A stretch of DNA of 64,000 nucleotides from a virus (Duplodnaviria; Heunggongvirae; Uroviricota; Caudoviricetes): positions 52,090 through 116,089 of IMG/VR virus record IMGVR_UViG_3300041407_000207, one strand, 5' to 3'. The notes beneath the pieces are model-generated. The model saw only the letters and a program-made list of their open reading frames with translations. It did not search any database and was not told the DNA's origin. Below, piece after piece: positions 1,840-56,670 of this stretch. Each line of letters opens with the position of its first letter. The first letter of the stretch is position 1. Both the position numbers and the translations under genes were made by a program.

Positions 1840-3096
1840 TCAGTCTTCGTCAGCAGCCGCTTCAGTTTCTGGAAGTGCTGCCGCCGCAGTAGCACGGGCA
1901 TTCAACGCTTCGGTTTCCGCTTGCATTTCTGCAAGGATACGTTCAGCGATCTCATACGTACGACGATCTTCTTCGGAAGCTTCCGGAATCTGGAAGCCGG
2001 TATTCCACATTTCGATGAACGCCGGAGTGTAGAAGTCCGGGTAGTCCGCCTGGAAGATCAGGGACGGGACAAACTTGCTGCCCAGACTTGAACTGATCAT
2101 CTTCGCAGTTTCATAACGAACAGGGTTGTTGGAGAGCATTTCGTCTTCCAACGAAGAGCTCAGTTCGGTGAATACTGCATCCATGGTGCTGGAATTGGCC
2201 AACAGACTACTACGGATGGCTTCCGCAAACTGATTGACATCACGGCTTCGACCAGTAGTTTTCCACGGAGCAGCTCGTCTCAGGACTTCATTAATCGAGA
2301 TCGGGTCGTAGCTGGTACCGTTGAACAGATCGAAGCTGGTACGCCATGAACGAACCGGTTTGCCCATGAGGAAGTTCTGAGCGTAAGCGATTACCTGAGC
2401 AGCCATCAGGTTGTTGATCGCCAGAGTCTGATCGAGATCAGCACACGAACGAGTCGATTCGCCATCGAGCATTTCCGCGTAGTACGCGATATCGATAGGC
2501 AACTCGCTCAACACAGTATCGCCCGGCAGGTAGCCTTGATACCAGTTGTAGATGAACTCCAGATCTTTGGCCGAAGCCGCGTTGATCTTGCCCGTGGTAA
2601 AGAAGCTTACCTGGCCGAAGATGTCTTCGTTACCTGCGTCAATCACTACGCTGGAGTTAGGCTGACCAGCCTGAGTAGACAAACCGGATTTGAGAATCGC
2701 ACGACGAGCTGAGGCGCTATCTACGGCCAGTACGTAAAGAGTTGGACCAGTGAGACGCTCGCGAAGGTTGAACATCTCCAGCGCTTCCAGGTACTCGTCT
2801 GTACCGGCAGCCAAGGTGATGGGCGTGATCTTCAGATCGTAAGCTTTGCTGTAGCGGGCAGCCAAGGCCTGAGCCTTGTTTTTACCGACGTCTGATTTTG
2901 CGAAATTCTGACGGCTGAGATTCTTCTCCTCAACTTCGTCGAAGTCGACCAATACCATTTCAGGCATGATCAACGTAGTGAGTGTGGACATCAGTTGTGC
3001 AATCGCCGGAATCAGGCGAGAACCCGTACCACCACAACCAAAGATCACTACGGTCTGTGGGATGTATGGGAGTTGGAACGTTAAATTTGTAGACAT
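1840..3096 (-). CDS. E1-like ThiF/MoeB-family adenylyltransferase (ubiquitin-activating-like), 418 aa
   Basis: N-terminal Rossmann motif VVIFGCGGTGSRL. The ThiF signature LVDFDEVEEKNLSRQ. Later C-x-DLDQTLAINNL...FLMG. AGGAG ribosome-binding site 10 nt before the ATG. Extra C-terminal extension of about 150 aa. Confidence 0.8.
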   Translation of the reverse strand: MSTNLTFQLPYIPQTVVIFGCGGTGSRLIPAIAQLMSTLTTLIMPEMVLVDFDEVEEKNLSRQNFAKSDVGKNKAQALAARYSKAYDLKITPITLAAGTDEYLEALEMFNLRERLTGPTLYVLAVDSASARRAILKSGLSTQAGQPNSSVVIDAGNEDIFGQVSFFTTGKINAASAKDLEFIYNWYQGYLPGDTVLSELPIDIAYYAEMLDGESTRSCADLDQTLAINNLMAAQVIAYAQNFLMGKPVRSWRTSFDLFNGTSYDPISINEVLRRAAPWKTTGRSRDVNQFAEAIRSSLLANSSTMDAVFTELSSSLEDEMLSNNPVRYETAKMISSSLGSKFVPSLIFQADYPDFYTPAFIEMWNTGFQIPEASEEDRRTYEIAERILAEMQAETEALNARATAAAALPETEAAADED

Positions 3097-3152
3097 GTTG
3101 AGCCTCTCCTGAAAGACAAAAGGGTAGGAAGGAAATCTCCTCTCTACCCTTG

Positions 3153-3160
3153 TTATACCA
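3153..3160 (-). promoter_or_regulatory. extended -10 box TGGTATAAC (minus-strand reading)
   Basis: Member of the conserved cTGGTATAA(C/G) family upstream of minus-strand units. Lies in the 85-aa gene/E1 gene junction. Confidence 0.4.
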
Positions 3161-3161
3161 A

Positions 3162-3419
3162 CTACAAGCCTTGTTCTGCGAGTCGTGCTTTACCCGGAAC
3201 ACTGAGCTCGTCATGAGCCTTGCGGATTATCTCCAACAACCAATCATCTTGGTTTTGATCCGAAAGGACTTCGATGCAGTTGAGGCCGACTGCGTACGCC
3301 ATGGCTACATCGGTGCCCTCTACTTCTTCGACGACGGTGAAGTCGTCTTGTCTCGAGAACTCGATAAGCGGCATGATCGCTTTACGCAGTTCAGCCTCGT
3401 CGTACATCTCATCGCTCAT
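3162..3419 (-). CDS. small acidic hypothetical protein, 85 aa, between the JAB and E1 genes
   Basis: AGGAG ribosome-binding site 7 nt upstream. Same polarity as the operon. The opposite-strand ORF 3150-3425 was judged spurious. Confidence 0.45.
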   Translation of the reverse strand: MSDEMYDEAELRKAIMPLIEFSRQDDFTVVEEVEGTDVAMAYAVGLNCIEVLSDQNQDDWLLEIIRKAHDELSVPGKARLAEQGL

Positions 3420-3469
3420 GAATAGCTCCTGAGGATCGTAGTCAAGCGGAAGTGCTTTGTTTAGGAACC

Positions 3470-4522
3470 CTACTTCTCCGACCCATCCAAATCTTTCAGC
3501 TTCCTCTGAAGACGAGTCGAACCCGGAACCATTCGTTTGCCTTTGCGAGATTGGCGCCCCGATACCTGCGGGCGCTGCGGAAAAGGGAGGAAAGAGTCCT
3601 CCTCAGTTCCGCTACACGGAAAAGGGAAACCAAACTGATTCAGCACCTCCGTATCGTCAGCGCTCAAACCTACAGATTCCAAAGCCATCGAGCCATTATT
3701 TCCGCGAAAGCTTTCGTTGGCTACTACCCGACCTCCGGGCGTTGTAGTGGTACTTCTGTTAGCACCACCCCCAGTGGTCCCGGCCCCACTCGTATTCTGG
3801 GAATACAGAGGACGGGTGTTGTACGTCGGGGCTACATACTGCTGCTTTTTTACCTGTGCCAACCATTCGGCGGGCACCTCCGTGGTTTCATAGGTTTCGA
3901 AAATCAACTCCGGAGGAAGTGGATTGATCTTCATATTGCCAGGCAGGTTGAATCGGAAAACCTTGTCGCAGGTAGTGCTCAGCTTGCCGATTACGCCAGA
4001 AACGTAGCAGTTGCCACGGTCGTCGCTGTCATCGGTACCGCTGAAGAATGCACCCATATCGTTGTGACTATGGATGTCCAGGACGATTACGTCTTCCGAG
4101 GTCAGGAACCCAGCCCAGTTGTAGTTAACCGCACCCGCCGAAACAGTCTGCTCAGGGATTCGAACATGGTAGCCCTGGGTAGGGTTCCAGATTACGAAAG
4201 CCATAGCTTCGAGCTTGGCGCCTTTGTGTTCGATCATTACCTGCTTGAAGAATTGCTCGATCTGGTGCAGGAACTTGATAGGGATCTTGCCCGCAGGAAA
4301 GAACGAATTGGTGTCCTGCTTGCAGTCCATCAGCTCAACTTCTTTCGGAGGAGTCGGGCAGGGAACTGTAACCGAACGACCGTGAGTCAAGTTGGTACGA
4401 CGGAAACAGCCGTTACCGCTGATGATGTAGATTTCTGCGAAGTTTTCGGAGATGGCCTCGTCGAGGTCAGTCTTCGTATCAACTACGCAAGAGAAGTACG
4501 GGAGAATAATTCGTTTGGTCAT
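3470..4522 (-). CDS. JAB/MPN (JAMM) metalloprotease domain protein, 350 aa, with a low-complexity G/T-rich C-terminal tail
   Basis: Exact JAMM motif H151-S-H153-x7-S161-x2-D164 (LDIHSHNDMGAFFSGTDDSDD). Upstream Glu (IPEQ). AAGGA ribosome-binding site. Confidence 0.8.
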   Translation of the reverse strand: MTKRIILPYFSCVVDTKTDLDEAISENFAEIYIISGNGCFRRTNLTHGRSVTVPCPTPPKEVELMDCKQDTNSFFPAGKIPIKFLHQIEQFFKQVMIEHKGAKLEAMAFVIWNPTQGYHVRIPEQTVSAGAVNYNWAGFLTSEDVIVLDIHSHNDMGAFFSGTDDSDDRGNCYVSGVIGKLSTTCDKVFRFNLPGNMKINPLPPELIFETYETTEVPAEWLAQVKKQQYVAPTYNTRPLYSQNTSGAGTTGGGANRSTTTTPGGRVVANESFRGNNGSMALESVGLSADDTEVLNQFGFPFPCSGTEEDSFLPFPQRPQVSGRQSRKGKRMVPGSTRLQRKLKDLDGSEK

Positions 4523-4532
4523 GATTCAATCC

Positions 4533-5315
4533 TTAGTAGGAAACCAGTTCGTAAGGGAAACGTTTTTCTTCTTTGTAGACTTCCGCAAGTTTCTTGAACC
4601 AGCTGGAGTGGCTACTGGAGTCAAACCTGACGTTCATCAGGCGAAGGTCATTGTTGAACGGAGAGTTCGCCAAGACCTGGTAGTACGCCTGGAAAATACG
4701 GAGATCACCACCTTCAACCATGTTGAACATCTGGTTCCCACCCATGCACAACGTGTAGTTGTCATAGCAGTTCGGGAAAGGCATGTAGTTGAAGATGCCT
4801 GACAGCCGACCTGGAATAACCATCGGTAGATCATCACGAGCAACAGGAGTCGAATAGTAATAAGCGTGAGCTACCTCGTGCTTCATACCGTTGTTCGAAA
4901 CCTTGAGGACCAGATGGATCACGATGTTAGGCATCATGATCTCATACTGATTCGTTTTGCTGCTGTTGATGTGAGTCAACGTTACTGGCCGCTCTGGGTA
5001 GTAAAGAGCGAGGTTGAGATTGTTACCTGCATACGCAGTCAGGTAGCAGCCTTCTGGCAGTCGCAGAGTTTCTGCACGGGAGTAGTTGAGAACTCCCTGT
5101 GCAGATTCCGCTAAAACTGCCACGAGATCTTTGATTGAGACTGGCTTTGCGAGACTGGACCCGTGACGCGTGATATGGGCACAGTCATCGAAAAGTTCAA
5201 TCTTCATTACTGGATTGGACATTGAGCCTCCGAGTGCTAAATATTCTTCTGCACTTTGCTTATACCAAAAAGGTGTGCAGTACTTAAATGAAGTCGTCTT
5301 CGTCGTCGTTCCCAC
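4533..5315 (-). CDS. hypothetical protein, 260 aa; possible degenerate E2/UBC-like fold
   Basis: GTG start. Segment NYMPFPNCYDNYTLCMGG has the P-N-x7-C spacing of the E2 HPN...Cys active-site loop (F replaces H). Weak evidence. Confidence 0.45.
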   Translation of the reverse strand: MGTTTKTTSFKYCTPFWYKQSAEEYLALGGSMSNPVMKIELFDDCAHITRHGSSLAKPVSIKDLVAVLAESAQGVLNYSRAETLRLPEGCYLTAYAGNNLNLALYYPERPVTLTHINSSKTNQYEIMMPNIVIHLVLKVSNNGMKHEVAHAYYYSTPVARDDLPMVIPGRLSGIFNYMPFPNCYDNYTLCMGGNQMFNMVEGGDLRIFQAYYQVLANSPFNNDLRLMNVRFDSSSHSSWFKKLAEVYKEEKRFPYELVSY

Positions 5316-5778
5316 TTGCCTGGATAAACACAGGAGCCGTGTTTACGCTGCGAGTAAGAATCCGAGTATCGATAATTCCGTTCCCAGAACGAGCACGGCT
5401 TGAACCATTACCCACTACTCGTTCATGATTGGTGCGATACTGAGTAGTAGCGGCCTCGAGAGCCCCAATCTTCAGTATCATTCCTTCCAAGTATTCCCGG
5501 GTTAATTCGTCGGGAAGAGTATTGAAACTTTCACCGAGGCCAGGAGGAAACACTTCGTGACTTCCGGAGATAGTCCCTTCGTTCCAGTAATTCTCGCAGG
5601 AGAATTCGACGCCCATGGCTTCATGAACTTTTCGAATGTAATCGATCATGTTCTGAAACCCTTCTGAAGAAGGGGCATTCGATTTACACTCAGCAAACAA
5701 CATCTCGCAAGCTTCACCAAAAGTGAGGCCTGCAAAACGATCTACGGGTTCTTCAATTACGACCTGGGCTGCGTCCAT
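5284..5778 (-). CDS. hypothetical protein, 164 aa
   Basis: Overlapping start/stop with its neighbours (operon packing). Acidic C-terminus. Confidence 0.45.
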   Translation of the reverse strand: MDAAQVVIEEPVDRFAGLTFGEACEMLFAECKSNAPSSEGFQNMIDYIRKVHEAMGVEFSCENYWNEGTISGSHEVFPPGLGESFNTLPDELTREYLEGMILKIGALEAATTQYRTNHERVVGNGSSRARSGNGIIDTRILTRSVNTAPVFIQASGNDDEDDFI

Positions 5779-6677
5779 TTGTATTCTCCGGAAGAGCCTG
5801 ATGTTTGTGTGAAGGGAAGCTTGTCGCCGCTAGCAATTACGCTATAGACGTTACGATCCGAGTAGAGATCTTTGTTATTCCCGTGGAAGTTTTGATCGTA
5901 TTCCGTAAGAACACGCCAATCTCGAAAATTAACTTTTCGATTGAAATTAACGATTGGAAACTTCGGGTCTTCGCCCCAAGTACCATCATGACTTCGAATT
6001 TTCCGAGTCAGCGTGCTCAGGACTTTATTGACGCCATTGACTACTTGACCGATATCCATGGTGCGGAGGATAGCTTTCAAAGTACCGACGTTACCGTCAA
6101 ATCTTCCGCCGAGATCGTTAGCGAACTGCTCGCGAACTCGAATACACATTCCATGGATGTTTTCGCCCACGACGGCAGAGGAGTTATCGAGAGTAGCTAC
6201 CCGGCTGTTGAAGCTGTTGCCGGATCCAATGCGGATGTCGAAGAAGCCCGGATACTTCCGGAGTAGTCGGCCCAAGTAACGAATCACTGCGCCGTCTGCC
6301 GGGAGGAAGAAAACTACTTCAGAAAGACCGTTTATTTCGGTCGCTGGAATAGGCCCATTGAAGCCTTGAAGATCTACCGACGCCCAATCGTGCAGAGCTT
6401 TAAAGTAAATACTCCGGAAATCGTTAGCTCCACGGGGAGCAGAAACGGTGCCTCGAGTAGGTACCTTCATACGGTGGAAAATTTCGGTGAACATAGTACC
6501 GAGACGGCTATTGAGCAAAGCCCAGGTATTATGGCTAACGGGCTGGAACGGGGTGTACTGGTTGTTAGACAACGCCTGTGCTCGACGAGAGATCGTTCGA
6601 TTTCGATTGGCGTTGGCAATCAATTGAGTCTGAGTATTATCAATCAGAACGTTTCCGTTCTCATCAAAAGCATACAT
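5757..6677 (-). CDS. hypothetical protein, 306 aa
   Basis: Long ORF in operon polarity. Begins just downstream of the terminator at 6706-6735. Confidence 0.5.
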   Translation of the reverse strand: MYAFDENGNVLIDNTQTQLIANANRNRTISRRAQALSNNQYTPFQPVSHNTWALLNSRLGTMFTEIFHRMKVPTRGTVSAPRGANDFRSIYFKALHDWASVDLQGFNGPIPATEINGLSEVVFFLPADGAVIRYLGRLLRKYPGFFDIRIGSGNSFNSRVATLDNSSAVVGENIHGMCIRVREQFANDLGGRFDGNVGTLKAILRTMDIGQVVNGVNKVLSTLTRKIRSHDGTWGEDPKFPIVNFNRKVNFRDWRVLTEYDQNFHGNNKDLYSDRNVYSVIASGDKLPFTQTSGSSGEYKWTQPRS

Positions 6678-6705
6678 GATGGAGCCTCCTCCAAATGACT
6701 AAAAG

Positions 6706-6735
6706 AAAAGCCTCCACTAGGGAGGCTTTTTTTGG
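6706..6735. terminator. bidirectional hairpin terminator / attenuator between the 66-aa gene and the 306-aa gene
   Basis: aaagAAGCCTCC-actag-GGAGGCTTttttt; T-runs on both strands. Confidence 0.55.
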
Positions 6736-6789
6736 CTTGAGGAAAGCTAAGACTAAGTCCTAGCTTTCACTCTTGCCGACCGGGCTGGA

Positions 6790-6990
6790 TTAGCAGCCTT
6801 TGGTGCCGACGCGTGCAGCGAAGGTGATGGTACGTTCTTCGCCAGAATCGACGCTGGTGCCGTCCATGCTGTTGATGGCCGGAACGCTCGAACCGTACAT
6901 GCTTTTCACTGCTTCGACCGTTTGAGCACCTGGCAGGGTGAAGGTCTGACCGGTGGTGCTGATAACGATTTTGGTAGTGTTGATAGCCAT
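6790..6990 (-). CDS. small protein, 66 aa; candidate beta-grasp (ThiS/MoaD/ubiquitin-like) with a non-canonical C-terminus ...RVGTKGC
   Basis: AGGAG ribosome-binding site 9 nt upstream and own promoter box at 7054-7061. Length and hydrophobic/Gly pattern (INSMDG...ERTITFAARVGtkgc) parallel ThiS (...DGD.I.I...VGGG). Followed by a terminator, suggesting high expression relative to the enzymes. Confidence 0.45.
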   Translation of the reverse strand: MAINTTKIVISTTGQTFTLPGAQTVEAVKSMYGSSVPAINSMDGTSVDSGEERTITFAARVGTKGC

Positions 6991-7053
6991 GGATGAAACT
7001 CCTAATGCATTTGGGATTTTTAGCTAAAGAGATAGTTCTCTCTCGCACTATTG

Positions 7054-7061
7054 TTATACCA
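7054..7061 (-). promoter_or_regulatory. extended -10 promoter TGGTATAACAATAGTGCGAGAGAG (minus strand)
   Basis: The near-identical 24-mer recurs at 42490-42512 upstream of the non-coding RNA locus. Confidence 0.55.
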
Positions 7062-7153
7062 GACATTCACTAAATATTGAAATTTATTAGCCTAAAAAGA
7101 GCTGCGCGGAGTTTAAAGGCTCTATATCAATGCTTTCAGAGTGGCGTCTTTGG

Positions 7154-7648
7154 TCTAGACAAATCTTGTCTACGGATAAGTGCTTGATTTCATTGGGTTT
7201 AGTCAAAGTTTAGACAAAGTAGACAAAAGCTGTCTAGAGTTTGTCTACGGCTCAAACCCACGGTCCGTAAGGCCTGCAGGGGTGCGCTAGACAAAATGAC
7301 AAGATTTTTCTCTGCACATGCACTCAGAGTGTGGATTTGTCACCTCAAGAAAATAAATCAGATCCATGACAACACCCCCCCTTTTGTCTACCAGCACATG
7401 AGTATATTTATAAATATATTTATATATATATATGTAGGTAGGAGTTTCAAATCTTTTATGTGGGGTTTACAAGCTTTGAGTGCATGTGAAACTTCAAATC
7501 TTGTCATTTTGTCTAGCGCAGGATTCAAAGCCATACAGGACGTGGCCTGCAGCCCTAGACAAACCTTAGACAGCTTTTGTCTATTTTGTCTAGATTCTGA
7601 CGAAGCCCAATGAATACGGGTACTTGGCCGTAGACAAGATTTGTCTAG
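7154..7648. repeat. nested inverted-repeat region built from TAGACA/TGTCTA hexamers around an AT-rich core
   Basis: Outer inverted repeat 7154-7175 / 7627-7648 (22 bp). Middle 7220-7239 / 7566-7582. Inner 7284-7306 / 7496-7518 (23 bp). About 15 hexamer copies. Centre 7396-7432 is (TA)n-rich. Confidence 0.7.
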
Positions 7649-7855
7649 AGGATTTAGTCCATGCTGAAACTATTGAGTTAGAGCCTTCAAATGCCGCGCA
7701 GGCTCTAGAACGTTGCTTGTAGGAGTCGTGCCCTTAAGGTCTCTTCAGAATACCTCTTCGTAAGTACGTAGGAGCTCCTGAGAGCCTGCAGGAGACCCGA
7801 TCTACTGCCGACCTACCCAACGGTACTGATTACTTACTAACGGGGCTTATAGAGC

Positions 7856-7894
7856 CTCTCGATAGCTCAGCAGAGTAAACTACTCTCGATAGCT
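7856..7894 (+). repeat. 12-bp direct repeat CTCTCGATAGCT x2 flanking CAGAGTAAACTA
   Basis: Copies at 7856-7867 and 7883-7894, 50 bp upstream of the terminase start. Confidence 0.6.
7871..7882 (+). promoter_or_regulatory. candidate late-promoter element CAGAGTAAACTA
   Basis: Identical 12-mer at 51410-51421 upstream of the other isolated plus-strand fibre gene. Confidence 0.4.
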
Positions 7895-7916: not shown

Positions 7917-9614
7917 ATGACTGACAAGATAACTACCCTTACACGGGCACAATTGGCGACCGCGATCCTAGAGATCAAAGGTAAGCCTCTCTCATTTAAT
8001 GAATACCTACCGTTCATCGACGTTTACGATCAGTATCCGGATGAGATGGTTCTGAAGTGTGGTCGTCAGGTAGGTAAATCGGTATCTCTATCCGGTGCTC
8101 TGGTTTCTAACAGTGCTTCTGTCCCTCACTTCAACTCTTTGTACATTGCTCCTCTCAGCCAGCAGACGAGTCGTTTCTCAACGGGATACCTCGACACCTT
8201 CATGGAGTCCCCGTTGCTTCAGAAGTACTACCGAGACACTAACTCTCGGAAGAACGTCTTTCAGAAATCGTTTAAGAACAAGTCCACGATCTATTTGGGG
8301 TATGCGGAGACCGAGGCTGATGCCGACCGTATTCGAGGCGTCAACGCTGACTTGCTCTGCGTGGATGAAATCCAAGACGTCAGCTTTGATGCCTTACCTG
8401 TTTTGTACGAAACCCTCTCTGCATCGGATTACGCATATAAGCGTCTTACCGGAACTGCCAAGACAGAGAACAACACTCTGGAGTTGAAGTGGAGAGCCAG
8501 TAACCAGTGTGAGTGGGTAATGAGGTGTGATGGATGTAGTCGTCATATTGCTGCTTACGACTACGAAACCTGCATGAAGATTCTCGAGCACAAGGACGGT
8601 CCTGGTTGTCCTCACTGCGGTCACACCATCGATGTAACCAAGGGGAGTTGGGTTTCTTTCAATCCAGAAGTTACTCGTAGCATTGGCCTGCATATCCCTC
8701 AGTTCATCATCGGGGCTCGAACCAAGCCTAAGAAATGGCGAGAACTGCAAGACAAGCTGACGATGTACAACCCTCAGAAACTTGCAAACGAGGTCTTTGG
8801 ATTAGCAGCGGGTATGGGTGGTAAGATTCTTACCCAGCGAGAAGCGATGCTTTGCTGCAATCTAGAGAAGACCGCCTTTGACGATCAGTGGCCGGTAGAT
8901 GACCGTGGTATCTTGCAGATTGCTCTCGGCGTTGACTGGTCTGTAACTTCAGCGTCTAAGTCATACACCATCATCACGGTAGTAGGGACGAATATGCTGG
9001 GTAAGATGTTTCTCCTCTACTCGGAGAGACTTAACGGTGTTGATATCCTGGACCAAGTACGGCATGTAATGTACATAGCCAGAAAATTCAAAGTTCAAAT
9101 GATCGCCTCTGACCGAGGAGTCGGGGTTCTTCAATGCCAGCTTCTTCAAAATGAACTGGGCAGAGATGTAGTTCAGCCAATTAACTACGTCGCATCTAAA
9201 GCGGCTCTTCGCTGGGATGGCATGGGCCAATATTTTGCGGCAGACCGTACGATGTGTATCGATTCGGTTATCATGAAGATGAAGCTTGGCAAAAACAGCT
9301 TTGAGACTCCGTCTTGGGATGTCACTGCTGGATTCTGGAGAGACGCTCTCAGCGTCCATGAAGAAGAGACTCGTGCAGGACGCCGTATCTATTGCAAACA
9401 TCCAGATATTCCAGATGATTGGTTGCACAGCGTTGTATTTGCTAATATCGGCTTGATGATACTTCGAAAAGAGTTCAAGTATATAGAAGCTCTCGAAGTC
9501 GGCACCAATATCCCACAAGCAATTTTCGCAGGTGGCTATGCGGATAAAGATGCGTGGGGCGCAGGAGATGACGACGACACTATGTTCGGTGGTCTCGGGC
9601 GTGAAGACTATTAA
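7917..9614 (+). CDS. terL: terminase large subunit, 565 aa
   Basis: Walker A KCGRQVGKS. Walker B LLCVDEIQD. C-terminal nuclease-like region. First gene of the late operon. Confidence 0.85.
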   Translation: MTDKITTLTRAQLATAILEIKGKPLSFNEYLPFIDVYDQYPDEMVLKCGRQVGKSVSLSGALVSNSASVPHFNSLYIAPLSQQTSRFSTGYLDTFMESPLLQKYYRDTNSRKNVFQKSFKNKSTIYLGYAETEADADRIRGVNADLLCVDEIQDVSFDALPVLYETLSASDYAYKRLTGTAKTENNTLELKWRASNQCEWVMRCDGCSRHIAAYDYETCMKILEHKDGPGCPHCGHTIDVTKGSWVSFNPEVTRSIGLHIPQFIIGARTKPKKWRELQDKLTMYNPQKLANEVFGLAAGMGGKILTQREAMLCCNLEKTAFDDQWPVDDRGILQIALGVDWSVTSASKSYTIITVVGTNMLGKMFLLYSERLNGVDILDQVRHVMYIARKFKVQMIASDRGVGVLQCQLLQNELGRDVVQPINYVASKAALRWDGMGQYFAADRTMCIDSVIMKMKLGKNSFETPSWDVTAGFWRDALSVHEEETRAGRRIYCKHPDIPDDWLHSVVFANIGLMILRKEFKYIEALEVGTNIPQAIFAGGYADKDAWGAGDDDDTMFGGLGREDY

Positions 9615-51443: not shown

Positions 51444-53663
51444 ATGAGGAACTTCTGCGTGTCCACACCAATTCTCCAAGACCCTACTTCTGAATTTCAG
51501 CCAGTAGAATTCTACACTGATAAGGACCCCTACTACTATGTCATAGATAACCGTCCGTTACGGAATCTAGACGCGAACATTGCCCAACTGGCAGGTAGTC
51601 TCGATGGCGTTAGTAGATCTGTACTTACAGAAGCAGTCGCAGCCTCGGCAGAAGATGCAGGTCTATACAAAGTAGGGACTAAGACCCTAGGCCTAGAAGC
51701 ATTCCAATACTCAGAAGGGGTGTTCTCCCTAACCCCAGGGGTCCTGTTTCAGTCCGCATCAATAAATTCCGGAGATTCTACCCAAGTACTCAAAAAGGCT
51801 TCGTACCCAGTCTCCACTGCTATCAGTGTCCCAAACACGGTAACTTCCGGGAAAGAACGTAATTACCTCATTCAGGTTCGACTGGTTGACGGTGGTGATG
51901 GTAACCCCTCGTTTTATGACGATGGTACAAATCCTACTACTGCACAAACTTTATTTAATGGCAAATTAGAGGTTGCCGCAGTAGCTGGCTCTGACGCGAA
52001 TATCGGCTCCGCTACCGTACCCGCTGTTACTTCTGGCTGGATTCCGATGTACGTTGTGAAGCGGACTTTCGGCGTAACCGACATGGCCATTTCATCTCAC
52101 GTAAACGCCCCTCCCCGAGCTACTTTGGCTAATGGCACTGCGGTAGAAGGGGTAGTCGTAGAAGCCACTGCCGCAAGGACTATCACGGACGCAGACGCAG
52201 GGTCCTTTATCACAACTACTAGTAGTTCTTCAGTAACTATTACTATCCCTGCTCAGGCCGTAACGCCTTGGGCTGATTCCACTGAAATATTTGTGGAACA
52301 ACTTGGCACCGGTCAAGTTACTTTCGTAGGTGCTAGTGGGGTTACTATCCGGGTTCCAGTAGGATCGGTGGCATCTTCCGCAGGACAATATTCAGTAATG
52401 AGGTTGAAACGTACGGGCCTAAACACTTGGACCGTATTCGGAGATATCGTCCGTGGTGTTCATAACGGTGAAAATTTAGTAACGAACTCCGCGTTCCTAA
52501 CCAGCGGGCTTCTGTACACGTTTTCCAGCGCTAACGGTACTTTGTCGTATGTAGATGCTACTGATGGATCGGTCCCAACTCCTTGCCCCGTAACTAGAGT
52601 TGCAGTTTCTACAAAACTTACCGCTGGAACTTTGGCATTCTCGCAATTTCCTTTGAAAAACGGGAGTACTACTATACGAGTGAGTCCTTCCGAAGTACTA
52701 GATCTTTCTATCTGGGCATGTGTTACTGGCGGAGCTGCTAACTCTGCACGAATGGTAGTGGTGGAGAGTACGCCAGACGGTACTTTTATAGCGAACACCC
52801 GAGTTCTTGCCTACAACAACACCGTTGGGGGCTGGCAGCAACTCTCCGGTTCTATTACTGTTTCCGCTACTACTGGGCTAATTTCTGTTGGTATGTGGAA
52901 CGAGTCTTCGATGCCGGCTGGTGGAGTTATTTATTACGGAGAGCCAGCGATTACCCGTCGAAACTCCTCTATCGCTATTCTTCAAACTACAAAAGCCCCG
53001 GTTGCTAACCCTAGATTTGTAACCGGTTCGGTATCTATCTCCGCCACTGCGGGTCAAGAGCCTCTGCCGGTACTGACTTCTGGGTACACTTCAGGACTTT
53101 CAGGATATAACACGGTAGGTCCTTCCGGCAGCCCGTTGACTCAATTTTGCGCACAAGGATATAGTTTTAGTACCGCAAACTTCGGGCCTGCGTTCATCGG
53201 AGCGAGATCACAAGGGACTTACGGCGCCCACGGGGCAGTCTCTGCAGGTAGATCTTGTTTGACTCTGATGGGGGAAGGTAGTGACGGCACTAACTATCAA
53301 CCAGTAGGTCGTATAGATTTCTATGCAGACGCAACTCCTACTTCGACAAGTTCACCCGGTAGCGTTCAGATTCTTACCACTCCAGTTGGTGCAGTACGAC
53401 CAGCTATTGCGGCCACGTTTGCTAGCAATGGTGCTTTAGCCGTAGTTGCAGGCGCTTCATTCGGTGGTTCGGTAGCTATTACTGGTGGGCTAACAGTAAC
53501 GGCCCCATCCCAACTAGGTCAGTTCACCTTGACCACCCTACCAAGTGCTTCAGCATTCAACGGATACATAATTGATGTGACAAACGCAACTGGCGGGGCT
53601 AAAGTATGTCGCTCTAACGGAACTGTTTGGCAAATCCTTAACACTACTACTACTGTGAGCTAA
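51444..53663 (+). CDS. Ser/Thr/Gly-rich tail fibre or tailspike-like protein, 739 aa
   Basis: Beta-rich low-complexity composition typical of fibres. Conserved-looking N-terminal 150 aa. Confidence 0.5.
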   Translation: MRNFCVSTPILQDPTSEFQPVEFYTDKDPYYYVIDNRPLRNLDANIAQLAGSLDGVSRSVLTEAVAASAEDAGLYKVGTKTLGLEAFQYSEGVFSLTPGVLFQSASINSGDSTQVLKKASYPVSTAISVPNTVTSGKERNYLIQVRLVDGGDGNPSFYDDGTNPTTAQTLFNGKLEVAAVAGSDANIGSATVPAVTSGWIPMYVVKRTFGVTDMAISSHVNAPPRATLANGTAVEGVVVEATAARTITDADAGSFITTTSSSSVTITIPAQAVTPWADSTEIFVEQLGTGQVTFVGASGVTIRVPVGSVASSAGQYSVMRLKRTGLNTWTVFGDIVRGVHNGENLVTNSAFLTSGLLYTFSSANGTLSYVDATDGSVPTPCPVTRVAVSTKLTAGTLAFSQFPLKNGSTTIRVSPSEVLDLSIWACVTGGAANSARMVVVESTPDGTFIANTRVLAYNNTVGGWQQLSGSITVSATTGLISVGMWNESSMPAGGVIYYGEPAITRRNSSIAILQTTKAPVANPRFVTGSVSISATAGQEPLPVLTSGYTSGLSGYNTVGPSGSPLTQFCAQGYSFSTANFGPAFIGARSQGTYGAHGAVSAGRSCLTLMGEGSDGTNYQPVGRIDFYADATPTSTSSPGSVQILTTPVGAVRPAIAATFASNGALAVVAGASFGGSVAITGGLTVTAPSQLGQFTLTTLPSASAFNGYIIDVTNATGGAKVCRSNGTVWQILNTTTTVS

Positions 53664-54070: not shown

Positions 54071-55819
54071 TCACGCCGCCATAGGAAGAGATTCCGTCAG
54101 GTTTGTACGCAGCGATGTCATCGTCGCTTCCGAGAGGACTTGACTGTTACGCAGCACACAGTTCAAATCCCCGTTGTAGCCGACCGGCTTACCTTCGACG
54201 AGTTCATACTCGTTGTCTTGATCGAGTTCAAGAGACAACCAGCCTTTCGCAGACTTTTTGCCAGGGTCGGTCTTCGGCGCTTTGTAGACGTCGATCTTCA
54301 TGTTGCCTACTTCGCCATAGGTGAGCTTCATTGCGAAGCCCAACGAATCTCGAGTCAGGTACTGGAGACTGTAGCTGCCTACGCCTACCACGATGTTTTC
54401 CGCAGAGAAGCCCATTTCCATCAAACGTTGCAGAATTGCTTCGAAACGCTGGATGGTGATGGAGTCGCCGTAGATCATGCGGATGTGTGGGTCCAGGACT
54501 TTGAAACCCTTGGAGTTCACAGTGCCGCCGAATACGTTCCACAGATGTTGGACAGTACCGGTCTCTTCTACCGTGGGAGTGGTAGGTTCGAACTGAGTTA
54601 CTGTTTTGCCGTCCATGTAGTAGAACTGTCTGTCTTTGCGGTTCCATTCGATGGAGACGGTGTAGCGATACACTTGACCTTTCCAACGAGCCAGGCCAGA
54701 AACTTCGCTTTCGCCATGCTGGCCGTGTTCAGTTTCGTCTTGGACTTTTTCAGTAACGTAGTCCAGTACCCAACCGCTAGCGTGTTTCTCAGTCTCGGCT
54801 TCATCTCCGATTTCAAAGATTTCAGCGGTTCCGCAGATCACTTCGATAGGGACGCCAGTATCCGGACGAACTACGAATGGGCCCCCTTCACGAGCCATGA
54901 TCTTGTCTTTGAGACGAGGCAGGGCGTATTCCAGCATGCCGTAATAGTCGTAGCTGTCCATAACGAAGCTGATGGGGCCGACGTTGTCCAGGTAGTCAGA
55001 TAGGAAGGCAATTTCTGCTTCCAGCAGTGAACAGCCACGAACAGCTGCGATCATCTGAATGTTGAGGGTGGTTAGAGAGTGCTCGGTGGCCATGATCGAA
55101 CCGAAGTCCGCCTTGGTTGCACCGTACTCATGCATTGCAGCCAAGCAGCCAGGGATGTTATCCGAACCACTGAACGCAGCCAGGAAAGGAGCACCAGTTT
55201 TGTAGCCAGCAGTCATCCCGGTAAGTCCCCGGAGACTGAAGTCGTGACACTGGTACTTAACGTAGCCATTGTCGTCTGCAGTCAGTGCTGCGTACTTCTC
55301 AGCAACGATGCGGTATTCACGAGCAGCAGTGGCTACGGTACTTGGATACCACAGCTCGTTACTGAAGTGATCCTCCATGTAGCTTGCAAGCCACGCAAAG
55401 TCGTCATGCGTGTTGGTCACCAGCATGATCGGGGTGTTTGCTTTTACTACTCGGCCTTCTTCTACTGCATGGACTTCGATAGGCAAATAGCCAAGAGCGT
55501 GCAGATCCGAAAGACGAGTGAGGTCTGCGTTCGGAATGGTCGCCTCGATCAATGGCCGAATCACTTCTTCAACTTCGTCCCACGAGTCTTCGAAGAACAA
55601 GTTCCAAGCATGGTTGATAGCGCACATCCCCTGGAGAATGCCCGCTGCGACGATCTTACCGTCGTACATCGAGCTGCCTTGGAAGTGCTTGGTATTTCGA
55701 GGAGTAAAGTTACCTTGACCCTTCGTGTAGCCTTTTGGGTACAGACCTGGGTGACAGAACTTGTAAGCGTCACAGAGGATGGCTGCGTACAGTTTTGCTG
55801 GGGGGGTACTCATTCGCAT
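54071..55819 (-). CDS. nicotinamide phosphoribosyltransferase-family enzyme (Nampt/NadV or the NARP1 Namat variant), 582 aa
   Basis: MDSYDYYG and VVRPDTGVP match Nampt VSDSYDIY and IIRPDSGNP. IRMIYGDSITIQRF...VGVGSYSLQYLTRD matches LRVIQGDGVD...FGSGGALLQKLTRD. C-terminal KAPKTDPGKKSAKGWLSL matches KDPVADPNKRSKKGRLSL. Confidence 0.85.
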   Translation of the reverse strand: MRMSTPPAKLYAAILCDAYKFCHPGLYPKGYTKGQGNFTPRNTKHFQGSSMYDGKIVAAGILQGMCAINHAWNLFFEDSWDEVEEVIRPLIEATIPNADLTRLSDLHALGYLPIEVHAVEEGRVVKANTPIMLVTNTHDDFAWLASYMEDHFSNELWYPSTVATAAREYRIVAEKYAALTADDNGYVKYQCHDFSLRGLTGMTAGYKTGAPFLAAFSGSDNIPGCLAAMHEYGATKADFGSIMATEHSLTTLNIQMIAAVRGCSLLEAEIAFLSDYLDNVGPISFVMDSYDYYGMLEYALPRLKDKIMAREGGPFVVRPDTGVPIEVICGTAEIFEIGDEAETEKHASGWVLDYVTEKVQDETEHGQHGESEVSGLARWKGQVYRYTVSIEWNRKDRQFYYMDGKTVTQFEPTTPTVEETGTVQHLWNVFGGTVNSKGFKVLDPHIRMIYGDSITIQRFEAILQRLMEMGFSAENIVVGVGSYSLQYLTRDSLGFAMKLTYGEVGNMKIDVYKAPKTDPGKKSAKGWLSLELDQDNEYELVEGKPVGYNGDLNCVLRNSQVLSEATMTSLRTNLTESLPMAA

Positions 55820-55830
55820 TGGGCTACTCC

Positions 55831-56670
55831 TTAGTAGTTTTCACGGGTTACGTTGAGGATACGGAGGTTACCTTCGCCTTGCAGCTCACGATGGTAACTG
55901 TTGGTGGAGATTACTTCGTCGTAGATACCGGTAACGACGGCAGTCCCCTTGGAGAACAGACCGTGGGTCACTGCCAAGCTTACCGAAGCAGCGCCCTGTT
56001 CTTTCAGGGAGTGATACAGCGGCACGAATGTACCGCAGCCATCACCGATATCATCCAGGACCAGCAGAGTACGACCTTCGACAGTATCGTTGACCCGGGT
56101 TCCGGAGATAGAACCAGTTGCGAGGTCACGAACCTTGGTGCAGTGAATTACGCCAGCCGCACCTACTTTTCTGGCGAACGATTCCGCCTTCTTAGCAGCA
56201 CCACCATCTGGAGCTGCGATATAGACTTCACGCCACGAGGTATAGATATCACGGAAGATATCGAACTGGGTCACAACTTCCAGGCGGTTGAACAGAGCCG
56301 ATGTAACCTCGCTGTGAGGGTCCAGGATCTTCACGCTGGCAAAGTTACAGGCGTTGATATGCTTAGCCACCACGGCGATGCTGAGAGGCTCACCTGGGTT
56401 GCAAACACGGTCTTGTCGGGCGTATGGCATGTACGGGATGAAGGCAGAGACGTCTGCACGAGGATAGACTCGACGAACAGCGTCCTCGATAAACAGCAGG
56501 TTCAAGAGATCGCCCTGAGTAGTGAGTCGAGCTACAATTTCGACCGACTCTACTTTCTCTGGATAGAGACCTCCGTCCTGGATTTGAGGAACTACTTCAC
56601 CACCTGGAAAGTGAATGTAGGTGATTTCTTCGGTGCAGTTGCCTTTGCGCAGATAAATAGTGCCTTTCAT
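55831..56670 (-). CDS. ribose-phosphate pyrophosphokinase-family enzyme (Prs, or the ADPR-pyrophosphorylating Adps variant), 279 aa
   Basis: IPYMPYARQDR (Prs IPYFGYARQDR). PRPP-binding loop LVLDDIGDGCGT (Prs LVDDMIDTGGT). Confidence 0.75.
   Translation of the reverse strand: MKGTIYLRKGNCTEEITYIHFPGGEVVPQIQDGGLYPEKVESVEIVARLTTQGDLLNLLFIEDAVRRVYPRADVSAFIPYMPYARQDRVCNPGEPLSIAVVAKHINACNFASVKILDPHSEVTSALFNRLEVVTQFDIFRDIYTSWREVYIAAPDGGAAKKAESFARKVGAAGVIHCTKVRDLATGSISGTRVNDTVEGRTLLVLDDIGDGCGTFVPLYHSLKEQGAASVSLAVTHGLFSKGTAVVTGIYDEVISTNSYHRELQGEGNLRILNVTRENY

Follow-up and report, generated by a model that had tools for sequence, protein, structure and literature searches.

A palindromic word array around an easily melted core, recurring in several copies in large tailed phages, is a plausible replication origin

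What is the role of a long palindrome that separates a leftward from a rightward gene unit in a large tailed phage, and that carries no obvious gene? The question arises from a 64,000-nucleotide stretch of caudoviricete DNA (IMG/VR record IMGVR_UViG_3300041407_000207, positions 52,090 to 116,089), hereafter the window, or W, in which such a palindrome, the W element, lies upstream of the gene for the large terminase subunit (TerL). An initial reading made from the sequence alone, hereafter the sequence-only reading, offered three answers: a replication origin, a multi-operator switch, or a packaging or terminus structure. The first is the best supported, and both the classical operator switch and the packaging site are disfavoured. 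On this answer, which we hold to be about evenly poised between right and wrong, each genome would have two or three such origins, and the W element would be one of them. What is observed comprises the anatomy and statistics of the element, its conservation, copy number and position, its weak duplex and its lack of coding function; from these we infer protein binding, melting and initiation. Its multi-copy character, its polar conserved core and its recurrence with different words in distant relatives are new with respect to the sequence-only reading. Comparisons rely on X, a 165-kb IMG/VR contig whose TerL is 90% identical to that of W and which has a TerL-side copy (X1) and a polymerase-side copy (X2), and on fetched metagenomic or relative loci labelled with L-numbers.

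The W element is a single imperfect palindrome of 600 bp. Its arms (7102-7329 and 7474-7701) are 228 nt each, 76% complementary and centred at 7401.5. In a mirror alignment they pair almost without gaps on either side of a 144-nt segment (7330-7473). The palindrome scores 93, whereas 200 shuffled versions of the region under a first-order Markov model average 10 and never exceed 15.5; no other palindrome within the 64 kb scores 25 or more. Three concentric inverted-repeat pairs had been recognised at first. Their sequences are indeed present, as an outer pair perfect over 22 bp (7154-7175 / 7628-7649), a middle pair matching at 18 of 20 positions (7220-7239 / 7564-7583) and an inner pair perfect over 23 bp (7284-7306 / 7497-7519), but the right arms of the outer and inner pairs had been placed one base off, and the pairs are not separate entities: they are the best-preserved patches of one continuous palindrome with 228-nt arms. 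The parts of the element and its immediate right flank are as follows.

7102-7329, no strand: left arm, with an outer dyad, a four-word cluster, a GC-rich spacer and an inner word pair, as delineated by repeat search, mirror alignment and the nine-arm footprint.
7156-7172, no strand: left outer dyad TAGACAAATCTTGTCTA, whose TAGAC...TGTCTA columns are invariant in nine arms.
7211-7247, no strand: left four-word cluster, with TAGACA at 7211 and 7220 and TGTCTA at 7231 and 7242, including the dyad 7220-7236.
7284-7306, no strand: left inner site GCGCTAGACAAAATGACAAGATT, perfect mirror of 7497-7519, in which TGCGCTAGACA..GACA is near-invariant in nine arms.
7330-7473, plus strand: asymmetric (polar) core, with one extra word, TGTCTA at 7385-7390, on its left side only.
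7403-7452, no strand: (TA)n or AT-rich tract, a candidate DNA-unwinding element from its nearest-neighbour free energy.
7474-7701, no strand: right arm, mirror of the left one, 86% identical to the polymerase-proximal copy of the W-like phage L089.
7497-7519, no strand: right inner site, perfect 23-bp mirror of 7284-7306.
7556-7592, no strand: right four-word cluster, with TAGACA at 7556 and 7567 and TGTCTA at 7578 and 7587, including the dyad 7567-7583.
7631-7647, no strand: right outer dyad TAGACAAGATTTGTCTA, in which position 7637 is the point of switch to a polymerase-type flank in the alternative-junction contigs described below.
7694-7709, plus strand: right-edge motif CCGCGCAGGCTCTAGA, common to X1, X2 and the polymerase-proximal L088 and L089, with two IMG/VR matches in all, which are the two X copies.
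7772-7782, plus strand: right-flank patch GAGCTCCTGAG, which has no second occurrence in the window and is conserved next to TerL-proximal as well as polymerase-proximal copies.

Both arms are built from one short word. TAGACA or its complement TGTCTA occurs exactly 15 times in 7156-7647 (492 bp), as the sequence-only reading had approximately counted, out of 37 occurrences in the whole window, and the 5-mer AGACA is found 15 times where 0.75 would be expected from the rest of the window. Repetition had been rightly perceived, but the repeated "TTGTCTAGACAA-type units" first proposed were too loosely defined: the true unit is the single word TAGACA(A), used in both orientations. The 17-bp dyad TAGACA-N5-TGTCTA has four perfect occurrences in the window, all of them inside the element. 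In W, X1 and X2, the centres of the words recur with a period of 10.75-11 bp.

The core is remarkable for its weakness as a duplex. When nearest-neighbour free energies were computed over 50-bp (50-stack) stretches and ranked across each window or locus, the least stable stretch of the 64 kb was found to start at 7403, with -48.2 kcal/mol (window mean -68.5, standard deviation 3.8). The next-weakest stretch has -54.3 kcal/mol, and the W core lies more than 5 standard deviations above the mean. The AT-rich (TA)n core noted earlier, i.e. the tract 7403-7452, is the weakest duplex of the window. As a single strand, the element has a predicted fold of -165 kcal/mol (z = -19), a value that merely restates the palindrome. 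Extrusion of the whole structure as a cruciform from duplex DNA, also proposed from the sequence, is implausible: arms that are just 76% complementary, around a 144-nt non-palindromic core, make it unlikely. Two other explanations of the structure were rejected. A telomere site of the protelomerase telRL type does not agree with arms of 76%, a 144-nt asymmetric core and flanks made of TerL and a 66-aa protein; an assembly artefact does not agree with arms that are 76% rather than 100% identical, nor with the conservation of the element in independent assemblies.

Does the element encode a protein or an RNA? It contains a single open reading frame (ORF; 7296-7613, 105 aa), with partial tblastn matches on both strands of relatives and single-base indels in the aligned paralogue. 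The matches on both strands reflect conservation of palindromic DNA rather than of coding sequence, so that the ORF was rejected as a gene and the initial view that no credible ORF is present is borne out. A known structured RNA was also rejected, since no covariance model matched the element at gathering score: the Rfam scan of the window at gathering threshold returned tRNAs only, and within the element the sole matches were sub-threshold microRNA hairpins driven by the palindrome. Mismatches between the arms (15 G:T versus 7 A:C) are unconvincing as the strand bias of an RNA hairpin.

Is the element peculiar to this genome? Searches of the region with megablast and blastn against deposited phages gave no DNA similarity. 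At the protein level, the W TerL groups with phages of about 165-190 kb, namely Salmonella phage Arash (52% identity), Vibrio phages D69, D181 and D148 (43%) and many metagenomic contigs. In X, copy X1 stands upstream of TerL as in W, with 242-nt arms (89-91%), a TA-rich core and the TAGACA word. X2 lies about 68 kb from X1, inverted relative to it, between an intrinsic terminator and an extended -10 promoter, and directly upstream of a UDG plus 3'-5' exonuclease family-A polymerase (PolA) gene. Among homologues of this polymerase (62-89% identity), the upstream regions of four were fetched, and the polymerase-proximal copy or its edge was found in all four. L086 has a complete copy with TAGACA words; L087, L088 and L089 end inside the copy or at its right edge, and those parts of L088 and L089 that lie within an arm carry TAGACA words. 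The L089 sequence starts exactly in the TA core and is 86% identical to the core and right arm of W. In the W genome itself, the polymerase-side copy falls outside the 64-kb window.

More distant relatives have the element as well. Three complete copies are present in Vibrio phage D69, near 67.4, 125.2 and 185.4 kb. The 185.4-kb copy is 1.1 kb upstream of TerL, the 125.2-kb copy is inverted and located between ligase and exonuclease genes, and the 67-kb copy stands within a co-directional gene block, where it heads no operon on its "downstream" side. In the Vibrio-clade contigs L047/L048 and L077, the same plan is observed near TerL (within 1-2 kb in L077). In the Arash clade, the 20 loci examined show no comparable palindrome near TerL, two of them having just a repeat with 31-nt arms about 1.2 kb away, and in Arash itself only about 100 bp precede TerL. 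Arash, nevertheless, has a reduced element, at about 100.1-100.4 kb, upstream of its gp169c-gp168c polymerase operon and between a terminator and a TGGTATAAC promoter. The polymerase-operon copy, in the replication module, is the one conserved across all three clades (X/L086/L088/L089, D69 and Arash). Conservation in related phages, which the sequence-only reading had named as a check, is observed, with the same array in X, L086, L088 and L089 and versions with other words in D69 and Arash. The core is the weakest duplex of its own locus in X1, X2, L086 and Arash, and the three D69 cores rank fourth to sixth among the least stable stretches of 186.7 kb. No comparable element was described in the literature retrieved by full-text searches.

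Some side observations concern these copies. In the D69 record (OZ195729.1), tiny "hypothetical proteins" are annotated across the elements (185267-185568, 125092-125391 and 67494-67592), as is gp171c in the Arash record (OQ632216.1); these ORFs are probably not genes. HNH or homing endonuclease genes abut two of the three D69 copies (OZ195729.1, 65922-67355 and 185661-186284), and a TnpB (OrfB_IS605) fragment is found at 228-779 of L086, about 2 kb from its copy.

The copies share a common order: an outer word cluster, a GC-rich spacer of about 35 nt, an inner word pair, an AT/TA-rich core of about 100-170 nt, and then the mirror image. The word itself differs from one lineage to another and, where its sites were counted, is nearly confined to the elements:

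W clade: TAGACA, with 15 of the 37 occurrences of the window in the element.
D69: TTGCNACA / GTTACA, with 17 of 22 genome-wide sites in the three elements.
L077: TTGCTACA, observed in the element.
L048: TGTCACA, observed in the element.
Arash: TGTAACC, with 5 of the 6 sites of 19 kb in the element.

Alignment of nine arms, all from the W clade, gives a footprint in which the words are invariant and the spacers drift. Between the half-sites of a dyad stand five nucleotides (N5) in W and X and four (N4) in L086, and the middle site of X has six (N6). Arms and copies within one genome resemble each other: the X arms are 91% alike, versus 73-77% in all comparisons of arms between genomes. Between X1 and X2, identity reaches 95% in the core and 93-95% over core and right arm, with 79% in the left arm; among the D69 paralogous copies, it is 91-96% in the cores and 64-78% in the arms. 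In both phages, the core is the best-conserved segment between paralogous copies.

How could such an element work? Five properties, taken jointly, make up the signature of an origin: exclusive word arrays, helical phasing, a mirrored layout about the DNA that melts most easily, a word particular to each lineage, and a conserved, insulated position in the replication module. Features of the type found at iterons and unwinding elements are present, with clustered, confined words and an adjacent AT-rich region that is easily melted. The same architecture combined with a lineage-specific word is the pattern expected of an initiator that co-evolves with its sites. The variable dyad spacing (N4, N5 or N6) suits binding word by word, as at iterons or DnaA boxes, and the location of copies between an intrinsic terminator and an outward promoter points to an element acting at the DNA level. 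Considering these properties, a possible mechanism may be envisaged. A phage-encoded protein would recognise the single word TAGACA(A) and would load cooperatively on the approximately seven sites of each arm. Thanks to a site spacing of about one helical turn, the protein would occupy one face of the DNA. The two mirror-image arrays would then bracket and strain the 144-nt core, whose (TA)n tract would be the easiest DNA of the region to open. Once opened, the core might admit helicase/primase and polymerase, possibly in both directions, and the additional copies would represent further origins. In view of its fixed polarity and conserved sequence, the core probably also contains a dedicated signal for the start, for instance a promoter for a primer, an entry site or a nick site.

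Several observations weigh against an origin. No initiator was identified among the neighbouring genes that were scanned. The only gene that came up, in X alone, encodes an Arc-like ribbon-helix-helix protein just upstream of X2 (L024, 5992-6345); tblastn and annotation show no homologue in the window, L082-L084, L086, the Arash locus L090 or D69. The search for binding proteins also returned a 55-65-aa protein, common to the W clade only. Moreover, a core conservation of 91-96% exceeds what a simple unwinding element would need. The W copy adjoins TerL rather than replication genes, and the Arash clade does not have the TerL copy. The GC skew of D69, followed inside its long co-directional gene block, reflects transcription only and shows no step at the 125-kb copy, a result that is uninformative rather than contrary. 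Finally, the Arash paper makes no mention of termini or of an origin.

The position of the W element raises the question of DNA packaging. The genes and the promoter that flank the element are the following.

6790-6990, minus strand: 66-aa gene in the left flank, first gene of the minus-strand ThiF/JAB unit.
7053-7081, minus strand: sigma-70-type promoter of the leftward unit, just beyond the palindrome, with a -35 box TTCAAT (7076-7081), a 17-nt spacer and an extended -10 box TGGTATAAC (7053-7061).
7917-9614, plus strand: TerL gene in the right flank, heading the plus-strand structural unit (PHROG 675 at 3e-56; Pfam GpA_ATPase).

In W, X and L047/L048 the element is directly upstream of TerL, and in D69 and L077 it is within 1-2 kb. 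If this were a packaging site, terminase subunits would recognise the arrays and cleave within the core or close to it, in the manner of the pac site of phage P1, where hexamer arrays around a central region also occur. Such a pac or cos site is, of the four rivals weighed against the origin, the one to which we would give the smallest chance. Genomes have two to three copies, one of them beside polymerase genes, and the TerL region of the 20 Arash-clade loci, with the roughly 100 bp available in Arash itself, offers nothing equivalent. In particular, a single TerL-linked pac or cos site per genome fails, with two copies in X, three in D69 and none near TerL in the Arash clade. In addition, no small terminase gene was recognised among the genes neighbouring the W element, and full-length contigs of 165-183 kb neither begin nor end at the element, although this last point is weak evidence.

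The promoters around the element bear on another possibility, that of a regulatory hub. The leftward promoter listed above is kept in X and Arash. Its extended -10 motif, TGGTATAA, has nine minus-strand sites in the window (3153, 5260, 7054, 39140, 41182, 42505, 51396, 57409 and 63873) and a single plus-strand one. Of the nine, at least six closely precede the start of a minus-strand ORF, and the motif probably represents an early or middle promoter type. No promoter of this type was found ahead of TerL. As to a late-promoter motif, the plus-strand "intergenic" stretches that were extracted proved mostly coding, and TATAAATA was too rare to judge. The arrays could serve as operators or enhancers to which a phage transcription factor binds, perhaps one of the ribbon-helix-helix or helix-turn-helix type, which would control the early leftward and late TerL units here, and the polymerase operon elsewhere, by looping or silencing. 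Copies that head major operons, 17-bp dyads resembling the operators of a dimer, and the Arc-like regulator gene just upstream of X2 would suit such a role, as would the -35-like character of TAGACA, a consensus scan giving weak promoter-like sites in both arms. However, the sigma-70-type extended -10 promoters stand some 80-285 nt outside the outermost words, at a variable distance, and the half-site spacing (N4/N5/N6) is not conserved. On these two grounds, repressor operators of the lambda OR/OL type were rejected, the promoters being not overlapped by sites. Furthermore, the 67-kb copy of D69 heads no operon on its "downstream" side, the Arc-like gene is not conserved, and a regulatory hub leaves the very unstable and conserved polar core unexplained. 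We consider this hub unlikely, while leaving it an appreciable chance.

A further set of observations comes from the way in which these genomes assemble. Among eight contigs encoding the exact 66-aa protein, six stop 107-627 nt upstream of its gene, and all eight contigs with the exact W TerL stop 45-555 nt upstream of that gene, inside the element. More generally, W-clade contigs (L092-L097, L099-L106, L037 and L087-L089), among them some of 66-100 kb, almost always end in the element or at most about 300 nt from its edge. Two samples each yield the genome as a pair of contigs (100,080 + 69,845 bp and 99,498 + 66,062 bp), both members of which end inside the element at the TerL-proximal locus; in the MEGAHIT (k141) sample, these ends overlap in the element by about one k-mer. 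On the 69.8-kb contig, TerL stands at one end, with the polymerase operon in the direction of the opposite end. A different junction is present in L091 (1-1300) and L098 (1-1570), contigs of two separate projects: here the flank with the 66-aa gene continues through the left arm, the core and the right arm into a polymerase-type flank instead of TerL. L091 is 99.5% identical to the window, and the switch of flank is at window position 7637. This junction could result from recombination between inverted copies or from an assembler path through the repeat, two cases between which short-read contigs cannot decide. The reciprocal junction (TerL, element, 65-aa gene) was not recovered from the eight TerL-side contigs, all of which stop inside the element, and an exact-protein look-up for it gave no match.

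These data invite the view that the element is primarily a recombination or mobile element, i.e. a foldback repeat resembling a miniature inverted-repeat transposable element (MITE), or a hotspot inverting an arc of about 70 kb, and that it takes no part in starting replication. Its several copies per genome, its palindromic structure and the homogenisation of its copies inside one genome (see the values for X above) would suit this view, L091 and L098 carry the junction expected from an inversion, and two of the D69 copies have endonuclease neighbours. Against this stands the fact that the polymerase-proximal position is syntenic across clades whose TerL are 43-52% identical to that of W, each clade with its own word, which indicates long vertical inheritance rather than recent mobility. 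Genomes have just two to three copies, the alternative junctions may be assembler paths, and inspection of the edges by eye did not make a target-site duplication evident. A MITE or foldback transposon was rejected on the basis of these edges and of the synteny of both the TerL-proximal and the polymerase-proximal positions. On balance, a recombination or mobile element without a part in initiation appears improbable. A composite hypothesis would combine both activities: the inverted copies would be bidirectional origins whose recombination flips the structural/replication arc of about 70 kb relative to the remainder of about 100 kb, producing isomers as in herpesviruses or chloroplasts, and they would represent a class of palindromic multi-copy origins undescribed for tailed phages. 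We regard this hypothesis as speculative, with somewhat better prospects than a purely recombinational role and somewhat poorer ones than a regulatory hub.

Finally, protein-coated arrays can have other roles. Short words in both orientations with helical phasing resemble omega-type centromeres, so that a centromere-like or anchoring site (of the omega or ParG type), or a barrier insulating transcription, may be considered. The PHROG matches of the Arc-like protein of X include families labelled "partition protein ATPase", and copies are located between terminators and promoters. But no partition ATPase was found nearby, partition is not obviously needed by a virulent-type phage of this size, and such a role would again leave the unstable and conserved core without explanation. 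We judge it very improbable, marginally less so than a packaging site.

If the element is an origin, which known systems does it resemble? The closest working analogue is found in the oriL and oriS of herpes simplex virus, where a palindrome is built on an AT-rich tract with initiator sites inverted on both sides. These origins also exist in two to three copies per genome, between transcription units, with one of them next to the DNA polymerase gene, and inverted copies are associated with genome isomers. The two systems, however, share no homology in sequence or proteins and belong to hosts of different domains. In the phage, the arms of 228 nt, with about seven words each, are far longer and just 76% complementary, an asymmetric core of 144 nt separates them, and initiation is a proposal.

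The closest concepts in bacteria and phages are the iteron origins (lambda ori, plasmid oriV, bacterial oriC), in which confined and phased initiator words stand by an AT-rich unwinding element. The lambda origin, unlike the W element, is inside the initiator gene and has four iterons on one side of the AT tract. In the phages studied here the arrays are mirrored on both sides, intergenic and multi-copy, without an identified initiator gene. The same short repeats at two distant loci, served by one replication protein, are found in satellite phage P4 (ori plus crr) and in Bacillus phage SPP1 (oriL plus oriR), one of the SPP1 loci being within the replication module. P4 crr is not itself an origin. 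In P4 and SPP1, the loci are not large palindromes with a central unwinding core, and homology is not apparent. P1 pac is the closest packaging look-alike, as its hexamer clusters flank a central region next to packaging genes. It is nonetheless single-copy, spans about 160 bp and contains seven hexamers with Dam sites, in contrast with a multi-copy element whose conserved copy is next to replication genes. In arrays bound by ribbon-helix-helix proteins (omega heptads of pSM19035, MetJ boxes AGACGTCT), short phased words are also direct and inverted; AGAC/GTCT half-sites are reminiscent of MetJ, and an Arc-like gene is found beside X2. But the omega and MetJ arrays are contiguous and overlap promoters, whereas the phage words are spread over 500 bp around an unwinding core and the Arc-like gene is not conserved.

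Other features of the window deserve mention. To the right, structural and tail genes come after TerL. A 12-nt exact direct repeat, CTCTCGATAGCT, occurs at 7856-7867 and 7883-7894, 27 nt apart and just before the TerL start codon; the 10-mer CTCGATAGCT shared by this repeat has no other occurrence in the window. To the left, the minus strand (1840-6990) encodes a ThiF/E1-like protein with weak PADLOC matches to E1-E2/BilD, a JAB-domain protein, three proteins of unknown function and the 66-aa protein, which ends in ...VGTKGC. This cluster may be a phage-encoded ubiquitin-like conjugation set. The exact 66-aa protein is found in at least 19 metagenomic contigs, and the 306-aa, 164-aa and JAB genes come next in most of the eight shown. 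Further away, the minus strand carries a Ro60/TROVE plus vWA homologue (39140-40645), and no Rfam Y-RNA family reached threshold anywhere in the window. A gene for nicotinamide phosphoribosyltransferase (NAMPT) and an adjacent PRPP-synthetase-like gene (54071-56670, minus strand) form an NAD-salvage pair; the Pfam matches for the latter gene were obtained with its L082 homologue. D69 likewise has both genes, and Arash has the NAMPT gene.

Arash and D69, which are culturable, belong with D181, D148 and many metagenomic genomes to an orphan group of phages of about 165-190 kb, for which mapped replication origins, packaging sites and regulatory elements are all lacking. The anatomy and conservation of the element are solid and, as far as the sequence allows one to judge, its function as an origin is plausible. 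The element accounts for the repeated assembly of these genomes as contigs of about 70 and 100 kb, and for spurious small ORFs in deposited records. If it is true that inverted copies flip the intervening arc, the genome map of these phages would not be unique. An element of 0.3-0.8 kb with a lineage-specific word offers a concrete target for finding the initiator. It would also allow tests of multi-origin replication in phages and support the construction of shuttle or engineering vectors.

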